A stretch of 64,000 nucleotides of DNA from Candidatus Saccharimonadia bacterium (GTDB lineage: Bacteria; Patescibacteriota; Saccharimonadia; UBA4664): assembly GCA_041743505.1 (NCBI GenBank), contig JBGTMQ010000003.1:25148-89147 (forward strand). The letters run 5' to 3'. The position numbers and the translations under genes were made by a program. The notes beneath the pieces were generated by a model. That model saw only the letters and a list, made by a program, of their open reading frames with translations. It searched no databases and was not told the DNA's origin. Below, piece by piece: positions 16,321-60,862 of the stretch (within the stretch, counting starts at the first letter, position 1; every line of letters starts with the position of its first letter).

Positions 16321-19053
16321 TTATGCCCGGACCTTAGCCCCAAATTTCCTCGATAAGATTGCCAAAGCCTTTCGCTCAATATCAGCCGCTTCCGCGTCAG
16401 TAGGGGTTCGGTCAGCATGCGCCACCTTCAAATGCAACGCCAAACTCTTGTGGCCGGCCGGCACGCCTTCACCGTAATAATCGCTCACAAAACTAACCTG
16501 GGTCTGCGGCAAGTCAGCCAAGGCCACCGCCACATCCTGCCAAGCCGTACTCGCCGGCACCACAACAGCCAGGTCCCGCCCGACACTGGGGAAGCGCTCC
16601 AAGCCGGCAAACGCGCGCACCCCAAACCGTTTCAACAAAGCGTCAGCATCCAGCTCCACATACGCGGCCTCACCCGCAACCTTCAGCCGCCGCAGCCCCT
16701 CAGGATCAAGTTGACCAATCGTACCCAGCTGCCGTCCGTCCAGCTTAATTTTGGCCACCCGGCCACCAGCATACAGCGCCGGAACCTCCGCCACCGGCTC
16801 CACCGCCAGATTCACACCGAGCTCATCAGCCAACGTATCCAGCAAGCCCTTGGCATGCTGGTACGATTCATCCGGCCGCGCCACCATAATACCCAAATGC
16901 ATTGGCTCATCCGGCTGGTCGGCGGCGCCACGCTTTTCAAACACCCGGCTCAGTTCATAGAAGGCCAGCTCAGCAGCGTACCCACGGTTGCGCGCTAGCA
17001 CACTCAGGTGGCTGGCCAAAAGAGAGGACCGCAAGTACGCCTGCTCAGTCGATAGCGGATTTCTCAGTTTCAAATGCTTCTTCGCGTCCAAACCAGCGCC
17101 GGCCAATTGTTCTTCACTCACAAATGAGTATGTCATCACTTCAAACAACCCGGCGCCATACAACACCTGCTGCAACCGCCGCCGCTTGGACCGCTCCGAG
17201 TCAAATGACACCTCCTGCGGCTGCCACGCCGGAATCTTAGCCGGCACCCGCTCGTAACCCAGCACACGGACAATTTCTTCCACCAAATCCTGAGCTTCTT
17301 TTAGGTCCGGACGCCACCAGGGAATAGCCGGCACCGACAAATAATCATCCAAATTATCCACGTAACGTCGCGCACCCAGGTACTCCGAATGTTTGGTTAT
17401 GACCTCCAACACAGCTTCGTGCACGCCCGGCTGACCAGCATCCGATGCCTGAACGATCTTGCCATCACCAACATACACAGCCACATGGGCAACACCTTCA
17501 CGCTCTTTAGAATCAAGCTTAACCCAATCGCCACCAGCAAATAACAAATCACCCGGCACCAGCTCAGATTGCTTAACCGGCCACCCGGACTTAAATTGCT
17601 GATGCGCCGTATGCCCAATATTCACGCCAATCAGGGAATAGAGGTAGTCGGTTAAGTACGAGCAGTCAAACGCATCGGTCCCATCGGTTTTATAACGAGC
17701 CCCAAACTTATACGGCTTTCCGATGTGGCTCCGAGCCTCCTGAGCCACATCAAATACCCGGGCCTCAATCTGCAGCCGGGCTAGCGTCTGGACAGCCTCA
17801 TGACCCAATACCTCAAAACCCAATAACCGGTTCAGCAATGACCTTCGCAGACCAATCCTTTGCACCCAGGGCCACACGTTCAGCTGCCGCTGAACCGCCC
17901 CAACCCGGCCACCCGCCACTTCAACCAGTAACTCTACTGCCCGCGCCACCGCCACCGGCGCCAATTGCACCGGCAATCCGCGCTCAAATCGTGCGCTGGC
18001 TTCAGTGCGCAAGCCATGCCGCTTGGCCATCTTGCGCACTGTCGCAGCATCAAATGTAGCTGCCTCAAGCACAATTTCCTTGGTCTTTTCATCAACCTGC
18101 GTGCTGGCTCCACCCATCAAGCCGGCCAGCCCGATCGGTCCGGTAGCATCGGCAATAACCAGATCCTGATGGCTTAATTTCCGCTCCACACCGTCCAATG
18201 TCACTAGTTTTTCGCCTTGCCGAGCCAAACGCGCTTCGAGCGGCAGCCTAACCTTAGCAGCATCGTACGCGTGCAGCGGCTGACCGAATTCCAAATTCAC
18301 ATAGTTAGTCACATCCACTATCGGACTAATCGACCGCACACCCACCGCCTGCAACGCACTTGTCATCCAACGAGGGGAGGGGGCCTTCACATCCACCTGC
18401 AACGTCGCCAGCATAAACTGGCTTGCCTTCATGTCATCCAACATCAACTTTACGCCAGCATCCGTCTCCGCCTCCGGTTGCGGCTCCGGCAAATCCTTAA
18501 GCTCCGCGCCGGCAATCGCCCCGATTTCGCGCGCCAAACCAACCACGCTCAACAGATCAAACCGGTTGGCTTGGGTCTTGATATCCACGATTCCACCACT
18601 GGGATATATGTCGCACAATCTTGCCCCAACCACAGCCGTATCTGACAGCTCCAGAATCTGCTCGTGATTTGTCCCTATACCGAGCTCACGCTCACTACAC
18701 AGCATTCCTTCGCTTAACTCACCGCGCAACTTAGCCGCAGCTATCTTGTCGCCACCTGGGAGGGTAGAGCCGACTTGAGCAAAGGCTACCTTAAGCCCTT
18801 TTCGGACATTCGGCGCTCCGCAAACCACCCGCACTTCCCGATCACCCGCATCAACGAACACTAAACTTAGTCGGTCTGCCTTTGGATGCTGCATAACTTT
18901 TTTAACCAGCGCTACGATGACATTTCTATCTATCGGCTCTGAAGAAATAAATTGTTCAACCTCAATTCCAGCCTGCTCCAATGCCTCCACAATCTCATGG
19001 TCCGACATTGTGCGACGTAGCCATTCTTTAACCCAAGGTGTATAAATCTTCAT
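16321..19053 (-). CDS. pheT: Phenylalanine--tRNA ligase beta subunit with an inserted NlpC/P60 domain
   Basis: The N-terminal tRNA-binding domain, B3/4, the B5 motifs (LLGFEV...; VPAIPWWRPDL...DLVEEIVRVLGYERVPA), the core and the C-terminal FDX-ACB-like region are all recognisable. The start is probably M11 (MKIYTPWVKEW) at 19053; the ORF track begins at 19083. Residues ~442-575 (17359-17760) form an NlpC/P60-like block: GKPYKFG, FDCSYL, HTAHQQ, PGDLLFAG, HVAVYVGDGKIVQA. Confidence 0.9.
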   Translation of the reverse strand: MKIYTPWVKEWLRRTMSDHEIVEALEQAGIEVEQFISSEPIDRNVIVALVKKVMQHPKADRLSLVFVDAGDREVRVVCGAPNVRKGLKVAFAQVGSTLPGGDKIAAAKLRGELSEGMLCSERELGIGTNHEQILELSDTAVVGARLCDIYPSGGIVDIKTQANRFDLLSVVGLAREIGAIAGAELKDLPEPQPEAETDAGVKLMLDDMKASQFMLATLQVDVKAPSPRWMTSALQAVGVRSISPIVDVTNYVNLEFGQPLHAYDAAKVRLPLEARLARQGEKLVTLDGVERKLSHQDLVIADATGPIGLAGLMGGASTQVDEKTKEIVLEAATFDAATVRKMAKRHGLRTEASARFERGLPVQLAPVAVARAVELLVEVAGGRVGAVQRQLNVWPWVQRIGLRRSLLNRLLGFEVLGHEAVQTLARLQIEARVFDVAQEARSHIGKPYKFGARYKTDGTDAFDCSYLTDYLYSLIGVNIGHTAHQQFKSGWPVKQSELVPGDLLFAGGDWVKLDSKEREGVAHVAVYVGDGKIVQASDAGQPGVHEAVLEVITKHSEYLGARRYVDNLDDYLSVPAIPWWRPDLKEAQDLVEEIVRVLGYERVPAKIPAWQPQEVSFDSERSKRRRLQQVLYGAGLFEVMTYSFVSEEQLAGAGLDAKKHLKLRNPLSTEQAYLRSSLLASHLSVLARNRGYAAELAFYELSRVFEKRGAADQPDEPMHLGIMVARPDESYQHAKGLLDTLADELGVNLAVEPVAEVPALYAGGRVAKIKLDGRQLGTIGQLDPEGLRRLKVAGEAAYVELDADALLKRFGVRAFAGLERFPSVGRDLAVVVPASTAWQDVAVALADLPQTQVSFVSDYYGEGVPAGHKSLALHLKVAHADRTPTDAEAADIERKALAILSRKFGAKVRA

Positions 19054-19206
19054 CCCATAACTCCAATCATTCGACCATTCCATTCCAACGGCGCACCCAC
19101 TTCCGCGCCACCAAGCATGCCAGTAACTACACCCGTCCGTACTGTATCTAAACTTATCCTCGGGTACGCATCGAGCATATTTGTAGTTTCTACAACACTC
19201 ATCATA

Positions 19207-20235
19207 TTAAAACTGTTCGAGGAATTTAAAATTTGGCCTCCAAAACTCGCGCACATCATCGACACCATATTTAATCGCCGCAATTCGCTCCGGCCCAAAT
19301 CCGAACGCAAACCCGCTGTAAACGTCCGGATCAATGCCAACGTTCCGCAGCACCTGCGGATGCACCATGCCGGCACCACCAAGCTCCAACCAGCCAGACC
19401 CACCGCACAAATGACAAGCCTGATCCTTAACCCGGCCCAAACCCGAACAAGCCGAGCATGTCGCGTCCATTTCCACACTTGGCTCTGTATAGGGAAAATA
19501 GTTCGATCGCAATCGCACCTTAGTATCCTCACCCAAAACTCCTCGCATCATCGCCTCAAGCGTCCCCTTCAAATCCGCTAGGCTAATCCCCTTGTCCACC
19601 ACCAAACCCTCGATCTGATAAAAGCTCCACGAGTGGCGGGCATCCTCATCTTCATTCCGATAAACTTTGCCAGGAGCAATAATTCGAACTGGCAATTTAT
19701 CTTTGTTAAGCTCCAAATGCCGAACCTGTATCCCCGATGTATGAGTCCGCGGCAAATGCGCCTCTTCCAGATAAAAAGTATCCTGCATATCCCGGGCTGG
19801 ATGATCTTTCCCTACTAACAATGCCTCAAAGTTATACCATTCCGTCTCAACCTCCGGGCCTTCAGCCACTTGATAACCCATCTGCCAATACAGATCAATC
19901 AGCTCATCCAACACCACACCCACGGGATGCCGGTGACCCAGCTTGGGCCGGATGCCTGGAGTCGTCACATCAAACGGCGCACTCATCACGGCTGCCGTCT
20001 CGGCTTGCCGCAGGGTCTCTCCCCTCGCATCCAACGCCGTCTCCACGACCCGCCGCAACCGGTTAGCCTCAGCCCCAGCCGCCGCCCTTTGCTCTGCCGG
20101 CAACGCTCCTACAGCCTTAAGCTGCTCAGTCACCTGCCCTTTTCGACCCAACAAGCCAACCCGCAACGCCTCCAGTGCTTGTGCATTCGCCGCCGCCTCT
20201 ATTTGATTCAATAACTCCTGCTCGTTCATGGCCAT
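19207..20235 (-). CDS. pheS: Phenylalanine--tRNA ligase alpha subunit
   Basis: 342 aa, class II aaRS motifs. Its start overlaps the stop of the upstream membrane-protein gene (ATGGCCATGA), indicating coupling. Confidence 0.95.
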   Translation of the reverse strand: MAMNEQELLNQIEAAANAQALEALRVGLLGRKGQVTEQLKAVGALPAEQRAAAGAEANRLRRVVETALDARGETLRQAETAAVMSAPFDVTTPGIRPKLGHRHPVGVVLDELIDLYWQMGYQVAEGPEVETEWYNFEALLVGKDHPARDMQDTFYLEEAHLPRTHTSGIQVRHLELNKDKLPVRIIAPGKVYRNEDEDARHSWSFYQIEGLVVDKGISLADLKGTLEAMMRGVLGEDTKVRLRSNYFPYTEPSVEMDATCSACSGLGRVKDQACHLCGGSGWLELGGAGMVHPQVLRNVGIDPDVYSGFAFGFGPERIAAIKYGVDDVREFWRPNFKFLEQF

Positions 20236-20660
20236 CGAAACCTTACATATACCTCGGCAATTACCAACAATAATCCCAGTAGTATAGCATCTCTAAGGTT
20301 AAATTGGTGCAGCGAGCTCAATGCCATCATCGCCGTAATCCACCAAGCAGCCAGCATCCCCTGCCGCCACGAATACCGCAGCCGGCTAGCCCCGTTCTCG
20401 TGCACCCGCAAAAACCGCTTAATCCCATACAGTACCAACGCAATGATCGCCGACAAGCTAAACAACAGCAACACAAACCATAACGTCACCCCCACCGGCC
20501 CAATGGCCAGCGGATTGGTCAGAAGCACGCTCAACACTAAAATCATCCCTGACATCAGAGACCAGACAACGAGCAAACTCAGCCGCCCAAAAGTGGGCAT
20601 CGGATTCCTCTCTAGGCTTACTATGAACGCATTATGACATCTCAAGCCTTGTATCGGCAA
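20226..20660 (-). CDS. Small polytopic membrane protein, first gene of the pheS-pheT operon
   Basis: 144 aa with 3-4 predicted TM helices. Its stop overlaps the pheS start. Confidence 0.6.
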   Translation of the reverse strand: MPIQGLRCHNAFIVSLERNPMPTFGRLSLLVVWSLMSGMILVLSVLLTNPLAIGPVGVTLWFVLLLFSLSAIIALVLYGIKRFLRVHENGASRLRYSWRQGMLAAWWITAMMALSSLHQFNLRDAILLGLLLVIAEVYVRFRWP

Positions 20661-20663
20661 ACA

Positions 20664-20696
20664 AAAAGCACCCCTAAATGGGTGCTTTTTTCTGAC
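20664..20696. terminator. Intrinsic terminator (bidirectional hairpin) between the leader sORF and the pheS operon
   Basis: The minus strand reads aaaaaagcacccatttaggggtgctttttgtttg. The stem is GCACCC/GGGTGC, followed by a T tract on both strands. Confidence 0.7.
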
Positions 20697-20716
20697 AGGA
20701 CGAGATCTTGAACGTG

Positions 20717-20803
20717 TTAACGCCTGGTGGTCCGGATACAGGTCTCTCTTGGGAATTCATACTGAGATCCTAATTCTTCATAACGAAGTGTTGGCGACAA
20801 CAT
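20717..20803 (-). CDS. 28-codon leader sORF with a perfect SD (AAAAAGGAGGGcaccATG), immediately upstream of the terminator
   Basis: Hand-translated MLSPTLRYEELGSQYEFPRETCIRTTRR, stop TAA at 20719..20717. The terminator begins ~20 nt downstream. The downstream operon start is at 20660. Confidence 0.4.
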   Translation of the reverse strand: MLSPTLRYEELGSQYEFPRETCIRTTRR

Positions 20804-21214
20804 GGTGCCCTCCTTTTTGTTTTGGTTTAGGTTACAAGAGCCGCTTAAATTATTAGGCGTCTCACGACGCTACTAAGCGGCTCAGGAATGATTGCAGAGT
20901 TACGGGGCGAACGATAAGCACCCTATTTTTGTGTAAATTGGCGCACGTCGCCCCGTAGTATTTCCTACCGTATAGGTAAGAAATGGGTTTGGGTTGAGTT
21001 GGCTTGCTGCCTTTTTTACACATTGTGTGTAACGCACTAATGAAATGCTTTATAGACTTGGCCCAAGACCGAACTCGGGTTCCTCCCTACCTGGTTGGTT
21101 TTGGAAGGCATTCGGCTACGATATTAAATCATAACCGCGTGCCTTCCAAAACCGATGGAGTAAGCGCGGCATTTAGGTGTGGACCCCAAATGATACTCCT
21201 GTGTATTGTGACCG

Positions 21215-21272
21215 TAGGGTGAACCCAGGTTAGAAAGTAAGGGGGATACTTCTAACCGGGATCTACCCTACC
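21215..21272. ncRNA. Long imperfect hairpin inside the untranslated trpS-pheS spacer
   Basis: gtagggt...accctac encloses ccaggttagaa...ttctaaccggg. Nested stems total about 18 bp. It is part of a ~1 kb ORF-poor region. Confidence 0.3.
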
Positions 21273-21330
21273 GTCGCCGATGGCTTTATGGGAGAAGAGA
21301 CTAGGCTTTCAATGAACTGCGGACGAGACT

Positions 21331-21416
21331 TGATCGGAACTATGGTCGGGAACTTTGAGGACTTTGGTCGGGACCGTTCGACTGGGAACTTGTGAACTTC
21401 GAACTTGATACTAATG
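21331..21416. repeat. Degenerate tandem array of GGAAC/GGGAC units, seven or more (minus strand AGTTCC)
   Basis: cggaac tatggtcgggaac tttgaggac tttggtcgggac cgttcgactgggaac ttgtgaac ttcgaac. Confidence 0.45.
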
Positions 21417-21601
21417 TAGCACAAGCAGTTTCCAATGTCAACACTTCGGCATATACTATCGCAAAATACATAATATTAGCTCTACAAAGGAATAAAAGTT
21501 CCCTATCCAGCCTATTATGTGCACCATCATCATGAGCCATGTTGATCAATTTACAACATTTATGCACAAAAAATCGAGGCTAAATCAACAAAAATAACTT
21601 G

Positions 21602-21629
21602 GTTATAAACTTTATAGTGATGTTGTCAA
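21602..21629 (-). promoter_or_regulatory. Sigma70-like promoter, TTGACA-16nt-TATAAC, reading leftward into the untranslated region
   Basis: -35 at 21629..21624 and -10 at 21607..21602 on the minus strand. A ~0.9 kb region follows with no credible ORF, ending at the 20664-20696 terminator. Confidence 0.45.
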
Positions 21630-21733
21630 ATTTACTTTTTTTCAGCCACTAACCGCCCCTTACCGAGCCGGCCACTATACAATAATCGCGGCCGAATTGA
21701 CCGCGATTATTAAATTAAATCTTAGGAAATGGC

Positions 21734-22726
21734 CTAGATCAAACCCAGCTTCTCTTTAACGTCAGCCAGTTTAGCATTAGCCAGCTCACTGGCCCTCCAC
21801 CAGCCATGCTCCAAGGCCTTATCAATCTTTTCGTTACCATCTTTCATCAGCTGCCCATGCGAATGCTGTAAAGGCTGTAGTGTCCGGACCACCAACTCGG
21901 CTAGCTCATCCTTAAACACACCATAACCTTGGCCGACATACTGCTCCTCAATCTGCTCAATCGTCTTCCCGGTCAGGCAGGAATATGTCACCAGCAGGTT
22001 GGTCAGCGCCGGCTTATCAGGCCCTGCAGACACTTGGCTACCCGAATCCGTTACCGCCCGGGTAATTTTCTTCGTAATCGCCTTTTCATCATCAGCCAGC
22101 AATATACATCCGCTAAGATCAGCGTCACTCTTACTCATCTTTTTGCTTGGGTCCTGCAAATCCATAATCCGCGCGCCCTCAGTTTGAACAGTTGGCTGTG
22201 GCACCTTGAATGTATCGCCATGAAGATTATTAAACCTCGTAGCAATATCACGCGTTAGCTCAACATGCTGCTTCTGATCATCACCGATTGGCACCTCGTC
22301 GGCGTCATACAGCAAAATATCCGCCGCCATCATCACAGGGTAGTCATATAGACCCACCAACTGACCCTCCGGGCCTTGCTTAGCCGCTTTATCCTTAAAC
22401 TGAGTCATGCGGTTAAGCTCACCCACAGTAGTGTAATTGTTAAGAATCCAGGTCAGCTCAGAGTGAGCTGGCACCTGCGACTGCATAAAGACATATGAAT
22501 GATCATGATCCACCCCCGACGCAATCAACCATGCCACAGCCGACCGGCTGTCATAGTGCAGTTTCTCCGGGTCCGGCCGGACCGTCAAAGCATGCAAGTT
22601 AGGCACGAAAAAAAAGTGCTCGCGCTCAGGATCACGGCTCATCTCACCCCAGCGCTTCATTGCCCCGATATAATTGCCAAGGGTAAGATCACCGGTCGGC
22701 TTCACGCCCGATACGACTCGCTTCAC
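21734..22726 (-). CDS. trpS: Tryptophan--tRNA ligase
   Basis: 330 aa. The N-terminus is VSGVKPTGDLTLGNYIGA (HIGH-region equivalent) and KMSKS-like KMSKSD is present. A hairpin (21682-21713) follows the stop. Confidence 0.95.
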   Translation of the reverse strand: MKRVVSGVKPTGDLTLGNYIGAMKRWGEMSRDPEREHFFFVPNLHALTVRPDPEKLHYDSRSAVAWLIASGVDHDHSYVFMQSQVPAHSELTWILNNYTTVGELNRMTQFKDKAAKQGPEGQLVGLYDYPVMMAADILLYDADEVPIGDDQKQHVELTRDIATRFNNLHGDTFKVPQPTVQTEGARIMDLQDPSKKMSKSDADLSGCILLADDEKAITKKITRAVTDSGSQVSAGPDKPALTNLLVTYSCLTGKTIEQIEEQYVGQGYGVFKDELAELVVRTLQPLQHSHGQLMKDGNEKIDKALEHGWWRASELANAKLADVKEKLGLI

Positions 22727-22792: not shown

Positions 22793-23947
22793 CTAGTCAT
22801 CCTGCTGCGGTTTATCTAGCACCAATGCCTCAACCGCAGGTGCAGTATCGGCAATCCTAATCACATCTTTATCAACCTTCTTAAGTTCACGATGGGCATT
22901 ATTAAAGTGACCCACCGTCGTTCCAAGTGAACTACCCAGTTTTTGCATGTATGTTTCGTGAGCTACAATATGCTGACCCAACTCCCCTACCCGCTTCTGT
23001 ATATCCTTGGCTTTTTCCTCAATTTGCAGACTCCGCAAGCCCTGCATTACCGTCTGAAGATAGGCCATAAATGATGTAGGACTTACAATGATTACTCGCT
23101 TATCCCGAAATGCATACTCAATAAGATCCCGCGCATTTGTCTGCAAAGTACCCACCTTATTAATGAGTAAATCATAATAAACAGCCTCACTAGGTATGAA
23201 CATAAAGGCAAAATCCATGGTATTCTCAGCCGGCCGAATGTATTTGGAAGTCTCATCAATCCGGGCTTTAAGGTCATTCTTTATCGCCTTAATTAATGCA
23301 TCCTGACGAGTCTTATCTTTCTCCTCCACCAGACGGTTATAATTTTCCAGCGAAAATTTAGAATCTACTGGCAGCAATTTACCTTTATCCAAATAGATCA
23401 CAGCATCGACAATTTCGCCGTCATTAAACTTGTACTGAAGCGAGAACCGCTCTGGCGGCAAAACATTCTCCAGCACCGTTTGTAAAAAATATTCGCCCAA
23501 AACGCCGCGTTGTTTCGGATTCTGCAGTGTGTTTTGGAGCAGCTTCAATTCATCAGTAATACTCAACACCTGTTTATTACTAGCTTTTAGCTCAGTCAAA
23601 TCACGAGTCACCTCGCCAATCAGCCGCGACGAAGCCGCAAACTGCTGCTGCATCGCCGAACGCATACTGTCGTTTGTTTTATCGAGCCGGGTATTCAGCG
23701 TTTGATGAATCCCCTGCAGGTCCTGCTTGATCAGCCCCAGCGCTGCATCATTCTTCATGCCATCCCGAAGCTCGCGCATCTGCCGGTTCATAACATTAAT
23801 AATAACTACGAAACCACCCACGACCGCAAGCAACACAATCACTAGTAGAATAATCATTTCCATTGCCAAAGTATACCAGTCAAAGCATAACCGAACAAGA
23901 TGCGAACAAACCACCTCAAAAAATAGACCAGGTGACTGTTGTGTCAC
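22793..23947 (-). CDS. rmuC: DNA recombination protein RmuC family
   Basis: N-terminal TM helix, long coiled-coil and C-terminal RmuC-like motif (DFAFMFIPSEAVYYDLL). The likely start is M29 at 23863. Confidence 0.75.
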   Translation of the reverse strand: MTQQSPGLFFEVVCSHLVRLCFDWYTLAMEMIILLVIVLLAVVGGFVVIINVMNRQMRELRDGMKNDAALGLIKQDLQGIHQTLNTRLDKTNDSMRSAMQQQFAASSRLIGEVTRDLTELKASNKQVLSITDELKLLQNTLQNPKQRGVLGEYFLQTVLENVLPPERFSLQYKFNDGEIVDAVIYLDKGKLLPVDSKFSLENYNRLVEEKDKTRQDALIKAIKNDLKARIDETSKYIRPAENTMDFAFMFIPSEAVYYDLLINKVGTLQTNARDLIEYAFRDKRVIIVSPTSFMAYLQTVMQGLRSLQIEEKAKDIQKRVGELGQHIVAHETYMQKLGSSLGTTVGHFNNAHRELKKVDKDVIRIADTAPAVEALVLDKPQQDD

Positions 23948-36608: not shown

Positions 36609-37535
36609 CTATGTTAAGACAATACAGCCACGCCGCCTCAACTCCCCAAACCAACCCGGGTCTTCCAGGAACTTATTGAGCCGCACATCAAGCTTCACCA
36701 AATGCGGCAGCCACCGCAAACCTTCCGGCAGAACGCGTAGATCATTCTTCCTCAGGTCAAGATACCGCAGCGATGACAGCAAACCTAGTGACTCCGGAAG
36801 ACGGCTCAGCCGGTTATCGCGAAGGTCCAGGTCAGTAAGCTGGCCTAAATCCCCAATCGACTCCGGCAACATTGTCAGCTGGTTACCTTCCAGCATCAAC
36901 TTGCGCAGCACCACCAGCCCGCCAATCGTATCCGGCAAGCTAACCAACTGGTTATTCATCGCGTAGCACTCTCGCAAACAAGCCAAGTCTCCAAACGATT
37001 CAGGTAAGCCAGTCAGCTGGTTACCAAAGATCCGCACCTCCACCAAGTCAGCCATATCTCCAATACACGCAGGAAGTTCCCTGAACCTGTTTTTAGATAT
37101 GTTCAGATACACCAGTCTACGCAAGTTTCGACAAGTATCCGGCAACACCGTTAGCAGATTTCCTGCCAGGTACAAAAATTCTAGCCGGCCAAGTTCCCCG
37201 AGAGACGCCGGCAGCTGGTCAATCTGATTGTGCTGGACATCCCATACACGCAGGTTCCCCAGTCTACCCAAACCCGCGGACACCATGGTTAACTGGTTGG
37301 CGCTAGCATCCACCGATTCCAGGCTCGCCATCTCAAACAGGGCCTCAGGCAGTGCACTCAGCTGGTTATGAAAAACACTGAGTTTTCTCAACCGTCTTAA
37401 TTTGTTAATACCCAGCGGCAATTCCGGTAGTTGGTTATTATCCAAATACAGTGCTTCGAGCTCAGGATCAGCTAGTACGTCTTCAGACAAAGCGGTCAAT
37501 TGCTTGTCAGATAAATCCAAAATATGCTGCTGCAT
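36609..37535 (-). CDS. Leucine-rich-repeat protein
   Basis: 308 aa containing ~12 consecutive 23-residue LxxLxLxxNxLxxLPxxxGxLxx repeats. No signal peptide. Confidence 0.75.
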   Translation of the reverse strand: MQQHILDLSDKQLTALSEDVLADPELEALYLDNNQLPELPLGINKLRRLRKLSVFHNQLSALPEALFEMASLESVDASANQLTMVSAGLGRLGNLRVWDVQHNQIDQLPASLGELGRLEFLYLAGNLLTVLPDTCRNLRRLVYLNISKNRFRELPACIGDMADLVEVRIFGNQLTGLPESFGDLACLRECYAMNNQLVSLPDTIGGLVVLRKLMLEGNQLTMLPESIGDLGQLTDLDLRDNRLSRLPESLGLLSSLRYLDLRKNDLRVLPEGLRWLPHLVKLDVRLNKFLEDPGWFGELRRRGCIVLT

Positions 37536-37576
37536 ACTCCAATTATATAGTCTCCATTGCCGCTATTACCTATATA

Positions 37577-38026
37577 ATGAACGGCATGAAACTACTGGCT
37601 AAAAATAAACGGGCGACCTTCGACTACGAGCTAACCGAGCGAATCGTGGCCGGTTTAGCCTTGGTCGGTCCCGAGGTCAAGAGCGTCAAGGCCGGTCACG
37701 CCAGCCTCAAAGGCTCGTTCATTGCCCTCCGCGGCGGCGAGGCCTATCTCACCAATGCCCACATCACGCCCTACCAGCATGCCCACGCCAAAGACCAGCT
37801 TGACCCCACCCGAAACCGTAAACTCCTGCTCCACCGCCGCCAGCTCGACGCCCTGATCGGCCAAAAACAATCCGGCCTCAGCGTTGTACCCACTGCCCTT
37901 CTCCTGGACCGAAGCCTGGTAAAGCTAGAGATCGGCATTGGTCGCGGCAAGAAACGCTACGATAAACGCCAAGCCATCAAAGCCCGCGACACCGCGCGCG
38001 ACTTAGCCCGCGGCATCAAAGCCTAA
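37577..38026 (+). CDS. smpB: SsrA-binding protein
   Basis: The product contains MKLLAKNKRATFDYELTERIVAGLALVGPEVKSVK...LLLHRRQLDAL...KARDTARDLARGIKA, the SmpB core plus the basic C-terminal tail. The start is the internal ATG at 37577, or 37586. The ORF track's 37451 start would overlap the LRR gene. Confidence 0.9.
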   Translation: MNGMKLLAKNKRATFDYELTERIVAGLALVGPEVKSVKAGHASLKGSFIALRGGEAYLTNAHITPYQHAHAKDQLDPTRNRKLLLHRRQLDALIGQKQSGLSVVPTALLLDRSLVKLEIGIGRGKKRYDKRQAIKARDTARDLARGIKA

Positions 38027-38535
38027 ATAAAACAGCCCGCTGCAAACTCCAGATGCCGGCGTTTCGCGCCAACATCCAGTTTGCCTGCAACGAGCTTTGT
38101 GTTCTACGACTAGTTACTCTCTACGGAGAAATGTCCGCAAAAACAGAGTGGCACCAAGTACAGCAGGAACACCGAGTTGTATCAGGCACCCACCGCGACT
38201 ATGCGCACCACCACTACCGCCAGTCGGCGGATGTGTTCCAGTCTCGCCTGCCTTGCGCTGCTCCGGAATCTCAGGTCCCGGGTCTTTTGCCACACTACCC
38301 TCCTCAAGAGGTCTGATCTAGGACGCGGCAAACTATAACATAACTTAGTAAATAGTACCAACCCATAATAGTTCTCTCCATACCAATCTCAATCCGGCTC
38401 ATTCCTAAAAAGCATAAGTATTTTAGAATCTTGTTAATAAGTGCTTGACGGTCTTATCATGAGCGTATTAAAGTACTTACAGGTACCTGCACAAAAAAAG
38501 TACTCAACACAAAAAGACACAAACTCCATCACCTG

Positions 38536-38569
38536 AAATAGGCTCTGCAAAGAGCCTATTTCCTTTTTA
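38536..38569 (+). terminator. Strong intrinsic terminator ~510 nt downstream of smpB
   Basis: aaataggctct-gcaa-agagcctattt followed by CCTTTTT. Confidence 0.7.
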
Positions 38570-38705
38570 TAGCACTCTGCCCGTCCGCTTTTACCACTAT
38601 CGAGCTGCCTTTGTATGAAATTATTAGTCTTCATCGGTCCTGCATTTTTTCACATCCAAAGAGCACCCATTTAAGAAATTATTCTCACACGTCCTTGCCA
38701 CCCAT

Positions 38706-38803
38706 TACTGTACTAAGGGCAGTCACAAAAAGACCCGTCTCAATAAAGCCTTGAGATAGGCATAATTATATCCCACACTATCCACACTGCCCTCAGTACA
38801 GTA
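38706..38803. repeat. 98-bp element with 18-bp terminal inverted repeats, copy B
   Basis: tactgtactaagggcagt and actgccctcagtacagta. Same length, orientation and ends as copy A. The interior is ~50-60% similar to copy A. Confidence 0.6.
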
Positions 38804-38836
38804 GGCTACCCATTAGCAAGGCAAAAACCGGCCTCT

Positions 38837-44691: not shown

Positions 44692-46329
44692 CTAGAATCC
44701 GGGCAATACCTTCCGTCCTTGCAACTCGGCTGGAATAGCATGCCATTGAGGCGAGCACCCGCTCACGATCAAAGTCGGCTGGGCCAGAGGCGCCACTGGC
44801 GAAGTCGCGCTACACTTGGCATGATCAAACCCGAGCCAATGCCCAATCTCATGATTAATCAACTCAGCCCGGTATTCCTCAAGGCTCCCCTTCCAATCCG
44901 CCGGAGCTTTGGCCCAATTCGACGCATTTATCACAACGTTATTGCCAACTTGGCAGGTCGACTGCTTCGCGCAAGCCGGCGCGAACCCGGCCATCTCGCT
45001 AGCTGATGCAACCCAGATAGTTACATTACAATTACTGCTTGAGGATAAGAATTTAAGACTACCCCCGAGCGTCCAGCCATGCGGATTATCCAGCGTTGCC
45101 TGAGCTTTCGTTGTTAACGAAGCAACATCCAAACCAGCCGCCCCCCGAACTGCAGAACAAAAGGAATAGGTTTTAGCAGCCGGTGGCAACGGCACAATGG
45201 TTCGAGCTGCTACATTGCGCCTCGTCGTCGCGGCAGTGTACACCAAAGGTTGCTTCGCTTGAATCGACGCGAGAATAGCAGCCTCAGCAGCCGGCCGGTC
45301 AAACCTCCCGGGAATTCCCGCCACATATGCCGCCACCTTACCGGGATCAGGCTGCGCACCACTTCCCGGCTCCCCAAACCGAAGCCATCCGGCAATAACC
45401 TCAGCCGACGGCGAAATGGTGGCCGTCCTGACTTTAACACTCAAACTCAAGCCAATCTTAGCTTGAGCATTCTCTGCGTCCGCCGCATACGAAGCCGCCG
45501 CAATAGCCGGCGTCAGCTTCGTCGCACTTATGGTCACCTTCTGGTGCCTCTTCAAGGCCGTCAGCAGGCCCTCGTTCAGCTTAGCCCGGTCAACTTGCAA
45601 GCCGGCTTTCTCGGCGATCACCACGGGTGTCGTACCCACAATTATGGGCGCCGCATCTACCGCCGGATGATTATTATCCGCCGCCAACCGGTCGGCCACT
45701 GTCCCCACCGTCCGCTCATCCACCTGGTATTGCGGCTGCAGCGGCTTCGACATCAATGTCTCAGCCACACCAAAAAGCGCAAAAGGATTAGTTCTACCCG
45801 CATCCCGAACCTGCTGAACTAACTCCGCCGCATTCGTTGTACCACCTAGTTCACTTGGCTTCATCGCATACTCCGTTGTACCGATAGTAAAACGAACAGT
45901 ATCAACCGGCAGTGCCTGTTTAATCGCCACGTCAACAGCATCCAGCGGCTGGCCACCCAGAGCGCGGTTAGCCACCTGAACACCAGGATAGACTCGATCC
46001 TGATAGTACGACCTCGCCAGGACGTTCCCAACCACCACTACGGCTATAAGCGCCAATCCAACTATCAGTGGCCACGGCAAGTATCGTCGGTGCCACCCGC
46101 TTACTGCCGGTTGTTCCACCGAACCTGGCTTTGCCGGAACAACCCGTGGCCCGGCAATACCAGCCGCCCGGGACACCAGATCCGCCACCGGCTTTCGCAC
46201 AGGTGTCGGCAACAGCGCCGGCTGGCCTTCCGGCTCAGCAGCCGAATCAGCTATGATCTCACCGCACTGCAGACAAAACAATTGACCCTTAACGGGCAAC
46301 AATCTTGCGTGACAGGTTGGGCAATTCAT
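44692..46329 (-). CDS. Membrane protein with an N-terminal zinc ribbon and a C-terminal metzincin-like HExxHxxGxxH domain
   Basis: The N-terminus is CPTCHARL...CLQCGE, followed by a TM helix, and the C-terminus has HEIGHWLGFDH. Confidence 0.55.
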   Translation of the reverse strand: MNCPTCHARLLPVKGQLFCLQCGEIIADSAAEPEGQPALLPTPVRKPVADLVSRAAGIAGPRVVPAKPGSVEQPAVSGWHRRYLPWPLIVGLALIAVVVVGNVLARSYYQDRVYPGVQVANRALGGQPLDAVDVAIKQALPVDTVRFTIGTTEYAMKPSELGGTTNAAELVQQVRDAGRTNPFALFGVAETLMSKPLQPQYQVDERTVGTVADRLAADNNHPAVDAAPIIVGTTPVVIAEKAGLQVDRAKLNEGLLTALKRHQKVTISATKLTPAIAAASYAADAENAQAKIGLSLSVKVRTATISPSAEVIAGWLRFGEPGSGAQPDPGKVAAYVAGIPGRFDRPAAEAAILASIQAKQPLVYTAATTRRNVAARTIVPLPPAAKTYSFCSAVRGAAGLDVASLTTKAQATLDNPHGWTLGGSLKFLSSSSNCNVTIWVASASEMAGFAPACAKQSTCQVGNNVVINASNWAKAPADWKGSLEEYRAELINHEIGHWLGFDHAKCSATSPVAPLAQPTLIVSGCSPQWHAIPAELQGRKVLPGF

Positions 46330-46415
46330 CTTTAAATCAAGCCGCTTACATCTCTAATTTTAGCACAAGCGGAATAATTCGCGTATTGTTACTTGAGATG
46401 TTGTGAGGATTACAA

Positions 46416-48053
46416 CTACTTCAAAGTTCGCATGAGCTCGTACAGCCGGCCCTCATAAGCCTTGAGCCTAATCTCACCCTGGTCATGAGGCTGTCCATCC
46501 CCCTCAATGAGATGAGTACCCGCAATCCAAATGCCAATCTCCCGCAAGCTAATTCGTTGTTCAGTATTGGCAAAATTCAGCATCACATAGCATTTACCCC
46601 ATGGTGCCTCGCGAATAAAGACAAATACATCCGGATTACCGCCGGCAATCGATCGGTACGCGCCATCTGCCAGCGGCTCACACGCAGCGCGCAAATGTAT
46701 CAAGTGCCGGTACAAAGCCAACATTGACTCTGGTTGACGTTCCTCCAACTCCACATTGTGCATCGCGTAATCCGGCGATAACGGCAACCATGGACTCCCT
46801 TCACTAAAACCTCCGTTATATCCGCCGCTCCATGGCATCGGTGTACGGGATACATCACGTTTCAGAAGCGGTCCCTGTAGCTTACGCAAGCTAATATCAC
46901 GTTCATTTGTTGTAGAAATTACACCATTTTCCAGCCCGAGTTCTTCCCCGGCATACACCACTGGCAAACCTCGCAAAGTCATTTGCAAAAATGCCAACAA
47001 CCGGGCCCGTTTCTGTCCGCGCCGGGTCGCTATGCGCTGCTTATCATGATTACCCAATACATAGTTCGGCCAGTCATTCGGGCCAAGGCTGCCTTCATAC
47101 TCATCGATAAATTGACGGTATACTTCCGCGCTCCAGTCGAGGGTTATCAAATTGAAGTTGAATGGCGCATGAATCGGATGTCTCTCGCAAGCCCCATAAA
47201 GCTCTTTCAAGCCACTGATATTAAGGTAGGCTTCCGACAGCAAAAACGTGTCTTCCTTCTCGGCCAGCACATCACAAAACGAACCAACCAGGCCACCCAG
47301 CCCTCCCTGCACATTGCTATAAATTCGCAAATTGGCCAATGACGGCAGTGAGGTGGCCGGATCAAAATCAGGGTTTGGTGGGTCATTACGCAGAGCCTGA
47401 TCCTTAATCAAAGCCGTCACCGCATCTGTTCTAAATCCATCAACACCCCGTCGCAGCCAAAACCTTAAAACTTCCAGCATGGCAGCCCGGACCTCCGGAT
47501 TTCGCCAGTTCAAATCCGGCTGATCAGCCAGGAAAGTATGCAAATAATACTGACCCGTAGCATCATCCAGCGTCCACATCGGTCCGCCAAACCGGGACAG
47601 CCAGTTGTTCGGCATACTACCGTCCGGCTTAGGATCAGCCCAAATATACCAATCACGCTTTGGGTTGCCGCGGCTTTTGCGCGCCTCCACAAACCATGAG
47701 TGCTTGCTAGAGGTATGATTGGGCACGTAGTCGAGCAATAACCTCATACCCCGCTTGTGAACCTCACGCAACAACACATCAAAATCAGCCATCGTCCCAA
47801 ATAACGGGTCAATCGCACAGTGATCAATGATGTCATAGCCCCAGTCAGCCAGGCCTGAGCGATAAATCGGTGACAGCCAAATCGCTCCCACCCCTAGTGA
47901 TCCAGCCGTACCATCATTCAAATAATCCAGGCGCTCAATAATACCGCGCAAATCACCATACCCATCGCCGTTCGAATCGGCCCAGCTCAACGGATAAATT
48001 TGATACAACACCGCCTTGCGGTACCACGGGTCGTGACGCTTAGGATTAACCAT
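46416..48053 (-). CDS. GH13 alpha-glucosidase / oligo-1,6-glucosidase / trehalose-6-phosphate hydrolase family
   Basis: YQIYPLSWADSNGDGYGDLRGI, GVDGFRTDAV (catalytic Asp region) and the GH13 conserved regions. Confidence 0.85.
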   Translation of the reverse strand: MVNPKRHDPWYRKAVLYQIYPLSWADSNGDGYGDLRGIIERLDYLNDGTAGSLGVGAIWLSPIYRSGLADWGYDIIDHCAIDPLFGTMADFDVLLREVHKRGMRLLLDYVPNHTSSKHSWFVEARKSRGNPKRDWYIWADPKPDGSMPNNWLSRFGGPMWTLDDATGQYYLHTFLADQPDLNWRNPEVRAAMLEVLRFWLRRGVDGFRTDAVTALIKDQALRNDPPNPDFDPATSLPSLANLRIYSNVQGGLGGLVGSFCDVLAEKEDTFLLSEAYLNISGLKELYGACERHPIHAPFNFNLITLDWSAEVYRQFIDEYEGSLGPNDWPNYVLGNHDKQRIATRRGQKRARLLAFLQMTLRGLPVVYAGEELGLENGVISTTNERDISLRKLQGPLLKRDVSRTPMPWSGGYNGGFSEGSPWLPLSPDYAMHNVELEERQPESMLALYRHLIHLRAACEPLADGAYRSIAGGNPDVFVFIREAPWGKCYVMLNFANTEQRISLREIGIWIAGTHLIEGDGQPHDQGEIRLKAYEGRLYELMRTLK

Positions 48054-56665: not shown

Positions 56666-56812
56666 AAGAACCTTCCAATCAAGAGCACCAAATACCAGGA
56701 CGCTGATTACATTAACATAATTTATTTATAGTCGTATCTATTGACTTTATATATATAATATGTTAATATGTAGAAGCATTGACATCGGCATCCGTCCTAC
56801 CCAGGAGGCGCA

Positions 56813-57136
56813 ATGAGCCCGGCCGCAACCTTCTTCCGGAAAGATGATGTTATCATCTGGAATCCTGATCACATCGGTAAAACCCCGTGGCTGCAGCAAG
56901 AGCTGGGTAACGGACCGTTCACGGTCATCGAACCCATCGATGTACCCAACGAATGCCAATTTCCGGACACCCATTGCTCCAACGGCGAACACCCACCACA
57001 CTGCCCCGTCAAGTCAAGCCAGTCGGTTGGCCACCCTCAATGGGTAACTATCCGGCAGCCTAATGGACATGTATCACAAGGCACAATCCACCACGACAAT
57101 GCACAATACTCAGGATGGTGGTTCATCCACGCCTGA
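56813..57136 (+). CDS. Hypothetical Cys/His-rich small protein
   Basis: SD GGAGG is 6 nt upstream. The product contains PNECQFPDTHCSNGEHPPHCP. Confidence 0.45.
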   Translation: MSPAATFFRKDDVIIWNPDHIGKTPWLQQELGNGPFTVIEPIDVPNECQFPDTHCSNGEHPPHCPVKSSQSVGHPQWVTIRQPNGHVSQGTIHHDNAQYSGWWFIHA

Positions 57137-57151
57137 TCCGCCCCGCACCGT

Positions 57152-57853
57152 TCAAGCGAACACCCGTTGGCTGAATTGGCCAGCGGGGCGTTCGCTTTTC
57201 TGCCCAAAATACTGCGCTTCCCAAAGCAAAGCGCCCCCACGATGAGGGCAGCAATGCCCGCCCGTGAGGGCGAAAAACGAACAACGTCGGCCAAACCAGC
57301 CTTCAATCAGGCGGCCGATGGACCCTAGCAAACCCGTTGTGAGGATATAGATCCGGTATACACCCGACCCCACACCGTAATAAGCTGTCTCAAGCTCGAC
57401 CTTCAGACAGCTTTGGCCGTACAAAGATCCCAGGACATACGAGAATCCGTCCTCAGCCAGCTGCCTGGCGCAAGAAGCGAGATCCGAAGCAACAACCACC
57501 ACGTAGCCCCCGCCTCCAGGCAAGCCGAGGCCATTTGATGTCACCAGTGCTAGACTCGGCAAAAGATTGCCGTACCACCAGCCCAGCTTAGAATCCACGG
57601 CCTGAAAGCCAGCCATAGCAGTACCACCCTCGGGCAAACAGAACTGATACGGATTCACCAGCCGGCCGGCAAACTCATCCCGAAGGGCCAGATACTGCTC
57701 GCTGGTGACACAAAAGCCGAAATGGTCAAGACGGGTGTTAGGAAGCACAGGTACACCCCGCGTCCGTACCGTCCATTCCACTGCATGCAGACAGTCGTTA
57801 ATGACACCCTGAGGCGTAACAATAGCAGTCAGTTTACGCATCTCGCACCTCAA
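57152..57853 (-). CDS. Hypothetical protein
   Basis: 233 aa ORF, no recognisable motif. It is adjacent to the IS element. Confidence 0.4.
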   Translation of the reverse strand: MRCEMRKLTAIVTPQGVINDCLHAVEWTVRTRGVPVLPNTRLDHFGFCVTSEQYLALRDEFAGRLVNPYQFCLPEGGTAMAGFQAVDSKLGWWYGNLLPSLALVTSNGLGLPGGGGYVVVVASDLASCARQLAEDGFSYVLGSLYGQSCLKVELETAYYGVGSGVYRIYILTTGLLGSIGRLIEGWFGRRCSFFALTGGHCCPHRGGALLWEAQYFGQKSERPAGQFSQRVFA

Positions 57854-58917: not shown

Positions 58918-59694
58918 ATGCCAAGCTACCAAATATTCGCCAAGTTCTACGATGCCTCCATGGGCGATTCATCAGCCAAGATAGAACACATTCAAGGATG
59001 GATTAAACAATACCACCCATATGCAAAATCCCTGCTCGAGCTGGCCTGCGGCACCGGCACAATTCTTAAGGGTCTTGGCAACGAGTACACTCTTACCGGC
59101 CTCGATCTCTCACGCGAAATGCTCGACATTGCCAAAGCCAAAGTACCAAGCGCCCAGCTACATCATGGCGACATGGCAAACTTTGAGCTTGACCGCAAGT
59201 TTGATGTCATTATTTGCGTATTCGATTCCATAAACCATCTGAAAACACTCCCGGAGTGGCAAAGCATGTTCCAGCACGTCGCCGGCCATCTCAACCCAAA
59301 CGGCGTTTTCATCTTTGACTTCAATACTATCGGCCGGTTCAAGCGGCTTGTAGCAAGCACTCCCGGAATCCTAAATATGGGAGATGATTACCTTATTATG
59401 CACATCACCGAAGCCGCCACATATACCACAAACTGGAATATCAAAGTTTTCGAAAACACCGGCAAAGATAATTTTCGTCTCCATCATGAGGATATTGTTG
59501 AAATCTCTTTTCCGCTTGCACAAGTCAAACAAGACTTAACCAAACACTTTGAGATCCTCAACATCATAGACCAGCACGGCGGCCACGCCTCCGATGAATC
59601 AGATAGGCTGCATATTATCTGTAAAAGAAAGCGCTCTCACGAGCAGAACCAAAGCGGCCCGCTCGCAAGAGCAATAAAAAAAACACAGCCCTAA
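58918..59694 (+). CDS. Class I SAM-dependent methyltransferase
   Basis: Motif I LELACGTGTILKGL and motif II DVIICVFDSINHL. Confidence 0.75.
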   Translation: MPSYQIFAKFYDASMGDSSAKIEHIQGWIKQYHPYAKSLLELACGTGTILKGLGNEYTLTGLDLSREMLDIAKAKVPSAQLHHGDMANFELDRKFDVIICVFDSINHLKTLPEWQSMFQHVAGHLNPNGVFIFDFNTIGRFKRLVASTPGILNMGDDYLIMHITEAATYTTNWNIKVFENTGKDNFRLHHEDIVEISFPLAQVKQDLTKHFEILNIIDQHGGHASDESDRLHIICKRKRSHEQNQSGPLARAIKKTQP

Positions 59695-60107
59695 TCGCTG
59701 GAACTAGCTCTGCAACAATCGCGGCTCTGTCCGGCCCTTGTCGTTAGCCGGACAAAGCGGGTCATGAACAGCTGGGTCGTACACAGCCTGACCACATGGC
59801 AAATGATGCAACGGGATCTCGCTCCCCTGTACCCCTGGATTCCAGTACCCTGCCTCATGCAACAAATCGATCCCTCTGCTATACGCCAACCGGCCCGCGG
59901 CCTCGCGGGGCGACTCCATTTCGCCAGCATAGTGCCCCATAATGTACTCCTGACCTGTCGTATAGGTTATGGGATAATTATTGTAAATAATGCATCACCC
60001 GATTACAAATCGCGCTGTAAAAAATAGAACACCCCGCCGGCTACAGATGAATTGCGAGTAACCGCAACACATTCTGTAACCGGTAGGGCGATGAAAGCCG
60101 GCACTAC

Positions 60108-60329
60108 TTACCTGTTTGGGAAGTTTGGCCACCTGTCTCCGAGAATCTCCCGCTCGGACTTATTGAAGGAGCGGCGGGCAAACGCAGAAAGTATGCCTAC
60201 GAGTACCAGTATTCCAGCCCCAGCCCACATCAGGATAAGTCCCACCTGGGGCGCCTGAAGGAAGAACGGCGGCTCGACGTACTTCAGTATTGCACCACCG
60301 ATAAGGAGCAAGACTGCAAAAATAAACAT
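60108..60329 (-). CDS. Small two-TM membrane protein
   Basis: 73 aa. Strong SD (AGGAGGT) 8 nt upstream of the ATG. Confidence 0.55.
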   Translation of the reverse strand: MFIFAVLLLIGGAILKYVEPPFFLQAPQVGLILMWAGAGILVLVGILSAFARRSFNKSEREILGDRWPNFPNR

Positions 60330-60862
60330 AGTTCAAACCTCCTGTTTTCAGCGCCGGTACGAGCTATTTTCGGAGTCCAAGGTGCACGGAACCTCTTCGG
60401 GCAAATGGCCAAAGACCAACTAATACTAACATAAAATAGTCAGATTGTAAAGCAGAATGAAAAACCGGACCCCAAATGAAGGATCCGGCCAAAGATGAGC
60501 CTGTTTGGCCGCTAGTCATGTACCCTGCGATTGGGCCTGACCCTCTTAGCCGCCAAAATTGAAGCTGAACGCCGGCTGTAGCGACTGCCCCTGCGGCTAA
60601 TAGCCGCAGTCTCAAGACCATCCCATACCAATTCTACAAATCGCACTGCGTCGAAACGATCCGTCGGCGCAACACGAAACGTACGCTGAGCCTCGCTCAC
60701 CCACGCGCCCGTATGTCTCACCTCGCGGATAATCTTCTGGGTGCGAAGCGGCAGAGACACAGGATTAACAATTACTATGTCAGGCAAGATAACCCCCTCG
60801 GGTTGCAGGATCTACGCACTAAACATCAAAGTAATAATAGTATAAAAACTCAGAATGTCAAT

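Follow-up and report, generated by a model that had tools for sequence, protein, structure and literature searches.

The 64-kb stretch of DNA analysed here, called the window throughout, is assigned to Saccharibacteria (TM7; class Saccharimonadia, Patescibacteria/candidate phyla radiation (CPR)), a lineage of ultrasmall bacteria most of which are uncultured, by its PheS, which is 68–79% identical to that of 16 metagenome-assembled genomes. On the minus strand it carries, in gene order, the genes for RmuC (22793–23947), TrpS (21734–22726), a membrane protein (20226–20600), PheS (19207–20235), and PheT (16321–19083). The largest gap in this tightly packed sequence, 1,073 nucleotides (nt), separates trpS from the membrane-protein gene. 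Very probably, the gap is occupied by an independent gene encoding a structured non-coding RNA (ncRNA), read from the minus strand with a promoter and a terminator of its own, and not an attenuator.

The membrane-protein gene is placed at ATG 20600 because the resulting 124-residue product equals database protein P0001, to which it matches exactly. Four helices are predicted for this protein, which carries a basic loop and matched no Pfam or NCBIfam family. Its stop codon overlaps the pheS start, and in all syntenic loci compared it lies downstream of the RNA.

A preliminary description of the interval had likened its layout to either a transcription-attenuation leader with a small open reading frame (sORF) or a long regulatory ncRNA. 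The latter part holds, in the form of a covariation-supported structured RNA that is read in the direction of pheS and has a promoter and a terminator of its own, while the attenuation leader does not. We also agree that the gap contains no credible open reading frame (ORF), the largest encoding 75 residues and showing no conservation, and that it is strongly structured: It folds far better than shuffled sequence on both strands (z = −7.1 for the minus and −9.2 for the plus strand), and the hairpin noted there is found at 21210–21275.

Anatomy of the RNA gene

The predicted main promoter, P2 (21413–21441, minus strand), consists of a TTGACA −35 hexamer (21441–21436), a 17-nt spacer, and an extended −10 region TGc-TACATT (−10 hexamer at 21418–21413), which amounts to 10 of 12 consensus matches plus the TG. 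A pattern TTGACW-N10-GCTTGTGCTAMNTT precedes the RNA in 23 loci, with variants in the related loci L017, L018, and L035 (loci of relatives are designated by L and a number). From P2, transcription would start near 21407. The preliminary description had instead chosen TTGACA (21629–21624) and TATAAC (21607–21602), 16 nt apart on the minus strand. This promoter-like sequence, P1 (21602–21629), is present as described, but the best-conserved promoter is P2. In a gap-free alignment of 23 loci, the TTG of the P1 −35 is invariant while its −10 varies, and P1 is missing from distant lineages, where trpS ends 55–75 nt before the RNA promoter. P1 may give rise to a longer transcript.

An invariant upstream element, TTTGTGCATAAAYGTTG-N9-CAACA, is recognized in the alignment at 21540–21573 (minus strand) and in the corresponding position in L001–L038. 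Its core 9-mer TGTGCATAA (21560–21568) fits the DnaA-box consensus; in 18 of 24 loci, it precedes the −35 of the RNA promoter by 127–130 nt. Within the window's family, the alignment of the 230 nt before the RNA promoter is free of gaps, though much of the sequence varies; they also hold a CATAAGA motif adjoining the −35. Distant lineages do not have this 230-nt region. Our reading is a promoter architecture specific to the lineage, with a second promoter or an operator as possibilities; the invariant element may itself act as an upstream promoter element or an operator. As a separate observation, CATAAGCATAAGCG occurs within the RNA promoter's spacer in L017 (4917–4945) and L018 (1397–1425), and the window's family has the related motif GCATAAGA just ahead of the −35 instead.

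The alignments show the predicted RNA to be a string of independently closed hairpins, A to E, joined by unconserved C/A-rich linkers. Downstream of the putative start lies a variable 5′ segment of (A/C)AGUUC-like units (21320–21407, minus strand, as are all parts of the RNA described below). Read from the other strand, this segment is the GGA-rich tandem array of the preliminary description; the repeat exists but is weak (Tandem Repeats Finder score 30, 2.9 copies of a 7-mer). The segment differs in length between the window, L005, L013, L014, and L033 and is missing from most other aligned loci. It is followed by a single-stranded 5′ motif, CAGUUCAUUGAAAGCCUAGU (21300–21319; consensus GUUCRUUGAAAG), which occupies near-invariant columns in alignments A1 and A2 and of which distant lineages retain GUUCAUUAAAA.

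Hairpin A (21210–21275) is a helix of about 26 base pairs (bp) with mismatches at regular spacing, an invariant base GGUAGGG/CCCUACC, and an invariant apical loop containing CCCCCUU (21246–21240). Nine of its 26 pairs display compensatory changes, and 97% of cells are paired. In hairpin B (21158–21199), all 13 pairs of helices 2 and 3 show compensatory changes beneath a conserved loop GUCCAAAC, which reads GUCCACAC in the window. Hairpin C (21097–21153) forms a 20–22-bp helix with a conserved 2×2 internal loop and conserved G-U pairs (CGGUUAUGA/UCGUAGCCG); in this helix 4, 98% of cells are paired and 11 of 20 pairs carry compensatory changes. Next come a conserved motif, GGUAGGGAGGAA (21076–21091, alignment A1), to which GGCAGGGAAG and GGUUGGGAAG correspond in L017 and L018, and a variable C/A-rich linker (20987–21066; alignment A1 columns 470–670) conserved neither in sequence nor in length.

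Hairpin D (20960–20984; AUUUCUUACC/GGUAGGAAAU) keeps its 3′ strand GGUAGRRAU as sequence, with pairing retained in only part of the family. Together with the GGUAGGGAGGAA motif, the stems of hairpins A and D account for the three copies of GGUAGGR in the RNA. Hairpin E (20901–20957) is built from an outer stem UACGGGGCGA/UCGCCCCGUA, an inner stem GCGCC/GGGUGC, and a conserved CCAAUU loop. In its 15 pairs (helices 5 and 6), 99–100% of cells are paired, and pair 728–779 and the inner stem show compensatory changes; in distant lineages, the stems are GGGCCAGC/GUUGGCCC instead. The single-stranded 3′ tail (20884–20900), which together with the end of hairpin E reads CCCGUAACUCUGCAAUCAUU, contains the motif CCCGUAAC, invariant throughout the family.

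The RNA's own terminator hairpin (20838–20883), with a nested CGUCGUGAGACG tetraloop hairpin, had gone unnoticed in the preliminary description. It is conserved and shows compensatory changes in helices 7 and 8. In most relatives, the terminator hairpin and a T-run directly follow the conserved tail ending in CCCGUAACUCUGCAAUUAUU. The window and L040 have lost the U-run (CUCUUGUAAC) while the hairpin is intact. Up to its own hairpin, the RNA measures ~570 nt in the window, compared with ~430–570 nt in relatives; it would reach ~745 nt if transcription continued to the next terminator.

That terminator belongs to a lineage-specific segment of ~180 nt missing from most relatives. As previously described, it contains a 28-codon ORF (20717–20803, minus strand) encoding MLSPTLRYEELGSQYEFPRETCIRTTRR and preceded by a Shine–Dalgarno (SD) sequence AAGGAGGG at 20815–20808, so that the unit spans 20717–20815. 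An intrinsic terminator follows (20663–20696, minus strand), in which a perfect 11-bp hairpin (20663–20690) is followed by a T-run. Peptide, SD sequence, frame, and stop are preserved in L039 and L040 (tblastn E-values of 2e-7 and 5e-9), the two nearest relatives, whose membrane protein is 76% identical. The three peptides share the core (L/F)RYEELGS...P(R/K)xTCI(R/K), and differences fall more often on third than on first or second codon positions. The terminator is likewise retained in both, with compensating changes, and, being palindromic, can act in both directions. No match to the sORF was found in any locus besides these three. Loss of the U-run from the RNA's own terminator in the window and L040 leads us to infer read-through across the sORF to 20663–20696. 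The sORF is probably translated and probably co-transcribed with the RNA in the window's lineage.

Conservation, covariation, and strand

Homologous RNAs of identical position and strand were recovered from about 38 loci. In blastn comparisons with loci identified through PheS, the central part of the gap (~21445–20856) is 70–88% identical at the nucleotide level and keeps its position and orientation in every locus that extends far enough upstream, 15 in all. Matches by blastn, nhmmer, and covariance models in pheS-sense orientation between trpS and the membrane-protein gene comprise the window, L001–L015, L017, L018, L035–L038, and L040–L045. Ten of 13 pattern-search loci with visible neighbours display the same placement. 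An unbiased DNA-pattern scan of metagenomes for hairpin E only returned 13 loci, 11 of them true, and 10 of these 11 have the membrane-protein gene or pheS downstream. The remaining two pattern matches (L024 and L027) are chance matches with neither a model match nor syntenic genes. Loci reached via homologues of the membrane protein all contain a trpS-to-membrane-gene gap of ~680–1,460 nt with both RNA modules in order.

Gene callers placed nothing in the gap of eight independently annotated contigs (L035–L038, L040, and L042–L044) and called reverse-strand ORFs in the gaps of L041 and L045. The reverse-strand calls seen among relatives encode 79–101 residues (L045, 2064–2303; L039, 275–514; L041, 2052–2357; all minus). 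That in L045 overlaps the RNA (model matches at 1935–2096 and 2216–2338) and is probably a false call, and those in L039 and L041 belong to inserts that separate the RNA from the pheST promoter in particular lineages.

Conservation extends to L017 and L018, whose PheS is 47% identical, and to four more distant ones, L042–L045. All of these keep the promoter, GUUCAUUAAAA, hairpin A, a GG(U/C)AGGGAAG motif, hairpin E, CCCGUAAC, and the terminator. These distant lineages have an entirely different upper stem in hairpin A and different stems in hairpin E, with complementarity maintained, while CCCCCUU in the apical loop, GUAGGG/CCCUAC at the stem base, the CCAAUU loop, and CCCGUAAC are kept unchanged. 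The 64-kb window contains one copy only, with no further copies of the gap or the RNA, and the hairpin-A loop pattern found no match in viral contigs. By these comparisons, the predicted RNA is shown to be conserved across Saccharibacteria as a single copy of constant position and strand.

The structure is borne out by covariation. RNAalifold predicted 82 pairs for 23 sequences, 44 of them with compensatory changes. When the named structure of 83 pairs was evaluated on the MAFFT alignment, 97.2% of cells were paired and 45 of the 83 pairs had double changes. None of 500 column shuffles reached the observed pairing values, and sliding the partners lowered pairing to 30–44%. The same picture emerged when hairpins A and B were counted alone. 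Moreover, G-U cells outnumber A-C cells by 181 to 15, and covariance models score 110–160 bits on the pheS-sense strand versus 20–45 bits on the opposite strand. The minus strand is therefore the one from which the RNA is read, as the orientation of promoter and terminator also indicates. Single-nucleotide insertions and deletions within the conserved parts support its non-coding nature. With respect to long-range pairs and pseudoknots, mutual information with average-product correction yielded only the local helices and signals of a split into two clades.

The alignments show strong selection for five helices and four exposed motifs in the predicted RNA. Strong selection also follows from the genomes themselves, since dense genomes of ~1 Mb retain a gap of ~700–1,100 nt, with an RNA gene of 430–570 nt in it, down to 47% PheS identity.

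The RNA had no match among catalogued families. Known families were sought with Rfam 15, by a gathering-threshold scan of the whole window and by permissive scans of window positions 20300–22000 (E ≤ 10) and of five relatives (E ≤ 1). The gathering scan returned a single transfer RNA (tRNA), and the permissive scans returned no family for the gap and the five relatives, with matches to microRNAs and small nucleolar RNAs at chance level. ARAGORN detected neither a tRNA-like domain nor a tag in the gap. In terms of its sequence and predicted fold, the gap RNA is a new family of large structured RNA, matching no Rfam 15 family. Its definition (promoter, five hairpins, four invariant motifs, and two covariance models) suffices for searching cultivated Saccharibacteria.

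Alternative explanations

The position of the RNA might suggest a cis-acting leader of the membrane-protein/pheST operon, such as an attenuator, a T-box-like or different riboswitch, or an operator bound by PheRS or tRNA, in which the terminator would tune read-through. The RNA always lies upstream of the operon on the same strand, even at 47% PheS identity, and ends in an intrinsic terminator; hairpin E, the conserved tail, and the terminator are laid out like an aptamer with its expression platform, and in the window genome a short ORF precedes the last terminator. Leaders upstream of pheST are common in other phyla, as exemplified by the pheM attenuator in E. coli and the T-boxes of Firmicutes. 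Against such a leader stands a conserved, predicted promoter located between the terminator and the operon. This promoter, TTGCCG, an 18-nt spacer, and TG-CATAAT (20631–20660, minus strand), encloses position 20660, so that the operon does not begin there as had been proposed. Its pattern TTGC...TGnnATAAT is found immediately upstream of the membrane-protein gene and downstream of the terminators in all aligned relatives. Furthermore, the RNA is parted from the operon by unrelated inserts of 100–500 nt in L002/L041, L008, L012, L018, L039, and the window, some with reverse-strand ORFs: The insert measures ~500 nt with a reverse ORF in L002/L041 and ~450 nt in L018, it holds a reverse ORF in L039, and it is the sORF unit in the window.

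The elements of a classical leader are missing as well. There is no conserved antiterminator, as the 5′ arms of the terminators vary while the tail preceding them is constant, and folding of the sORF/terminator region in search of an alternative antiterminator pairing gave no excess of structure over shuffles (z = −0.65). The sORF and the terminator at 20663–20696, on which the attenuator reading had been built, are absent from all but the two closest relatives, and the peptide, which had rightly been called not Phe-rich, contains a single Phe among its 28 residues (in L040 and L039, at most one). The T-box model RF00230 remained unmatched in the permissive scans, in line with the earlier failure to see a T-box consensus. 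The single match to the Phe_leader model (RF01859) covers nothing but the palindromic terminator behind the sORF, lies on the plus strand, and scores 23.8 bits, which falls short of half the threshold of 55. The RNA is also two to three times longer than T-box, pheM, or pheL leaders. We thus consider a leader function improbable, and the annotation is corrected to a Saccharibacteria pheST operon with its own promoter and no evidence of attenuation.

A very divergent housekeeping RNA that the Rfam models fail to recognize, such as RNase P RNA, transfer-messenger RNA (tmRNA), 6S RNA, or signal recognition particle (SRP) RNA, would account for the occurrence once per genome in every lineage sampled and for a strong, conserved promoter, possibly two in tandem, as in stable-RNA genes. 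A failure of the models is conceivable, for Rfam and ARAGORN also found no tmRNA beside smpB: The tmRNA gene often adjoins smpB, and neither ARAGORN nor permissive Rfam scans detected one in the 810-nt gap beside the smpB-like gene of the window (37451–38026, plus strand; region 37451–38836). This 810-nt gap contains no long ORF. All four housekeeping RNAs are built on long-range or end-to-end helices, unlike the present string of local hairpins, for which neither a helix closing the 5′ and 3′ ends nor long-range covariation was found. Nor did even a weak match to RNase P, tmRNA, 6S, or SRP RNA appear at E ≤ 10 or in the relatives, and the sequence behind hairpin E is GUAAC instead of a discriminator base with CCA. 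Such an RNA is therefore very improbable here.

The candidates were also rejected individually. For tmRNA, there is no ARAGORN or Rfam match and no end-to-end helix. For RNase P RNA (P1–P4, GAGGAAAGUCC, ACAGAA...GGCUUA), Rfam matches and long-range covariation are missing, and the nearest motif, GGUAGGGAGGAA, varies between relatives. 6S RNA, a single hairpin of ~180 nt with a central bubble, does not fit five hairpins over 430–570 nt and gave no Rfam match. A likeness of hairpin A to the 3′ end of 16S ribosomal RNA (GUAGGG...CCUCCUU), noted by eye, involves short motifs with a different pairing, and the window does not include the 16S gene of the organism.

Could the RNA be mainly a long 5′ untranslated region (UTR) of a small-protein messenger RNA (mRNA), with the 28-codon ORF as the functional product? 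The strong SD sequence, the conserved peptide, and the terminator behind it in the window, L039, and L040 fit this view, as does the missing U-run of the RNA's own terminator in that lineage. Elsewhere, the ORF is missing and a good terminator just ahead of the pheST promoter ends the RNA, which also far exceeds the ORF in age and conservation. This makes a UTR as the main role highly improbable. The stand-alone RNA would probably serve additionally as the 5′ part of a small-protein mRNA in the small lineage of the window.

A DNA-level element, i.e., a replication origin, a DnaA-binding region, or a mobile-element relic, is scarcely credible: A DnaA-box-like 9-mer does lie at a fixed upstream distance, with DnaA-box matches nearby in L018 and L035, and both strands fold well, the hairpins being symmetric, but the gap has only one perfect DnaA box, the flanking genes are unidirectional, cumulative GC skew makes no turn, the element is unrepeated in the window and without viral matches, and the G-U over A-C asymmetry and strand-specific model scores reveal selection on one RNA strand.

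Several points weigh against a stand-alone RNA gene acting away from its locus. Promoter, transcription start, and terminator read-through are predictions from the sequence. That the RNA stays strictly linked to the membrane-protein/pheST operon across so large an evolutionary distance could reflect a local function in cis and not just synteny, and, as loci were mostly reached via neighbouring genes, further copies may exist elsewhere in those genomes. The window contains no AAGGGGG-type site before any start codon, and complements of the conserved loops and tails occur in it only at chance frequency. Finally, the lack of a detectable tmRNA beside smpB indicates that model sensitivity in Patescibacteria is imperfect, which weakens the missing Rfam hit as an argument.

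Other features of the window concern its remaining genes and gaps. PheT contains an NlpC/P60 (cell-wall peptidase) domain at residues 455–549, inserted between the B3_4 and B5 domains. This insert is present in L038, L042, and L043 and missing from L035, L044, and L045 as well as, judged by split tblastn matches, from about half of L001–L015. The promoter motif CTTGTGCTA is not general to other promoters in the window. One occurrence, at 46369, falls into the gap between two adjacent minus-strand ORFs of 545 residues each (44692–46329 and 46416–48053). Two further gaps, 56731–57152 and 59694–60713, have matches to a −35 and an extended −10 at 56741 (plus) and 60451 (minus), respectively; the latter gap has only short overlapping ORFs, and Rfam scans of both found nothing. 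They could hold additional ncRNAs.

Proposed mode of action and comparison with known RNAs

With much less certainty than for the existence of a stand-alone RNA, we propose that it would act in trans, as a stable riboregulator or a scaffold. The invariant parts are exposed motifs (CCCCCUU, CCAAUU, CCCGUAAC, and GUUCRUUGAAAG) and not helices, which is why a mechanism via contact sites is preferred, with these four motifs as the presumed sites. The CCCCCUU loop atop the long hairpin A would be complementary to AAGGGGG or, with one mismatch, to the SD-like AAGGAGG, and might thus pair with mRNAs in the manner of RNAIII or RsaE. Binding of a protein partner is about equally likely, given that no target was found in the 64 kb.

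A more ambitious version sees a core-function RNA of these reduced-genome epibionts, either a master riboregulator that governs the translation of several mRNAs through its anti-SD-like CCCCCUU loop or the RNA component of a ribonucleoprotein that might include the adjacent four-helix membrane protein. We regard this as rather unlikely; if true, it would be one of very few large bacterial RNAs with a new function. Apart from those of the ribosome, RNase P, and tmRNA, bacteria have few large structured RNAs, every one of which has led to new biology.

In the literature, we found no earlier description of a large structured RNA of Patescibacteria, nor of such an RNA in work on ncRNAs, riboswitches, and RNA motifs of Saccharibacteria and Patescibacteria. 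A 2022 preprint gives the model strain TM7x as having no validated small RNAs, and none of the ncRNA-related terms tried occurs in a 2024 perspective on Patescibacteria.

Among known systems, the CsrB/RsmZ sponges share the beads-on-a-string hairpins, the variable spacers, and a repeated motif, here the three copies of GGUAGGR. In contrast to the sponges, two of the three copies are paired in stems, and GGA motifs are not placed in loops. Like 6S RNA, the RNA described here would be a single-copy, apparently highly expressed, stable RNA, possibly with two promoters in tandem; tandem promoters also drive ssrS in E. coli. Five separate hairpins, instead of a single rod with a central bubble, a two to three times greater length, and the missing model match set it apart.

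OLE RNA, a large conserved structured RNA of one bacterial group, is encoded beside the small multi-pass membrane protein OapA. The Saccharibacteria RNA is also large, conserved, and restricted to one group, and adjoins a gene for a small multi-pass membrane protein, a likeness by adjacency only. It matches no OLE model, and the membrane-protein gene has a promoter to itself and is coupled to pheS in translation, so that the parallel to OLE/OapA stays an analogy.

For RNAIII (RF00503) and RsaE/RoxS, the resemblance is one of working principle, without similarity in sequence or model. RNAIII of S. aureus is a stand-alone RNA of ~0.5 kb with its own promoter and terminator, many local hairpins, and a C-rich loop, and it carries hld. 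The window RNA deviates in having one C-rich loop, no quorum-sensing genes nearby, no target found, and an ORF that is located at the 3′ end and confined to the nearest relatives. Like RNAIII, it combines a length of ~0.5 kb with its own predicted promoter and terminator, a series of local hairpins, a C-rich apical loop that would suit pairing with G-rich ribosome-binding sites, and, in the window's lineage, a small ORF.

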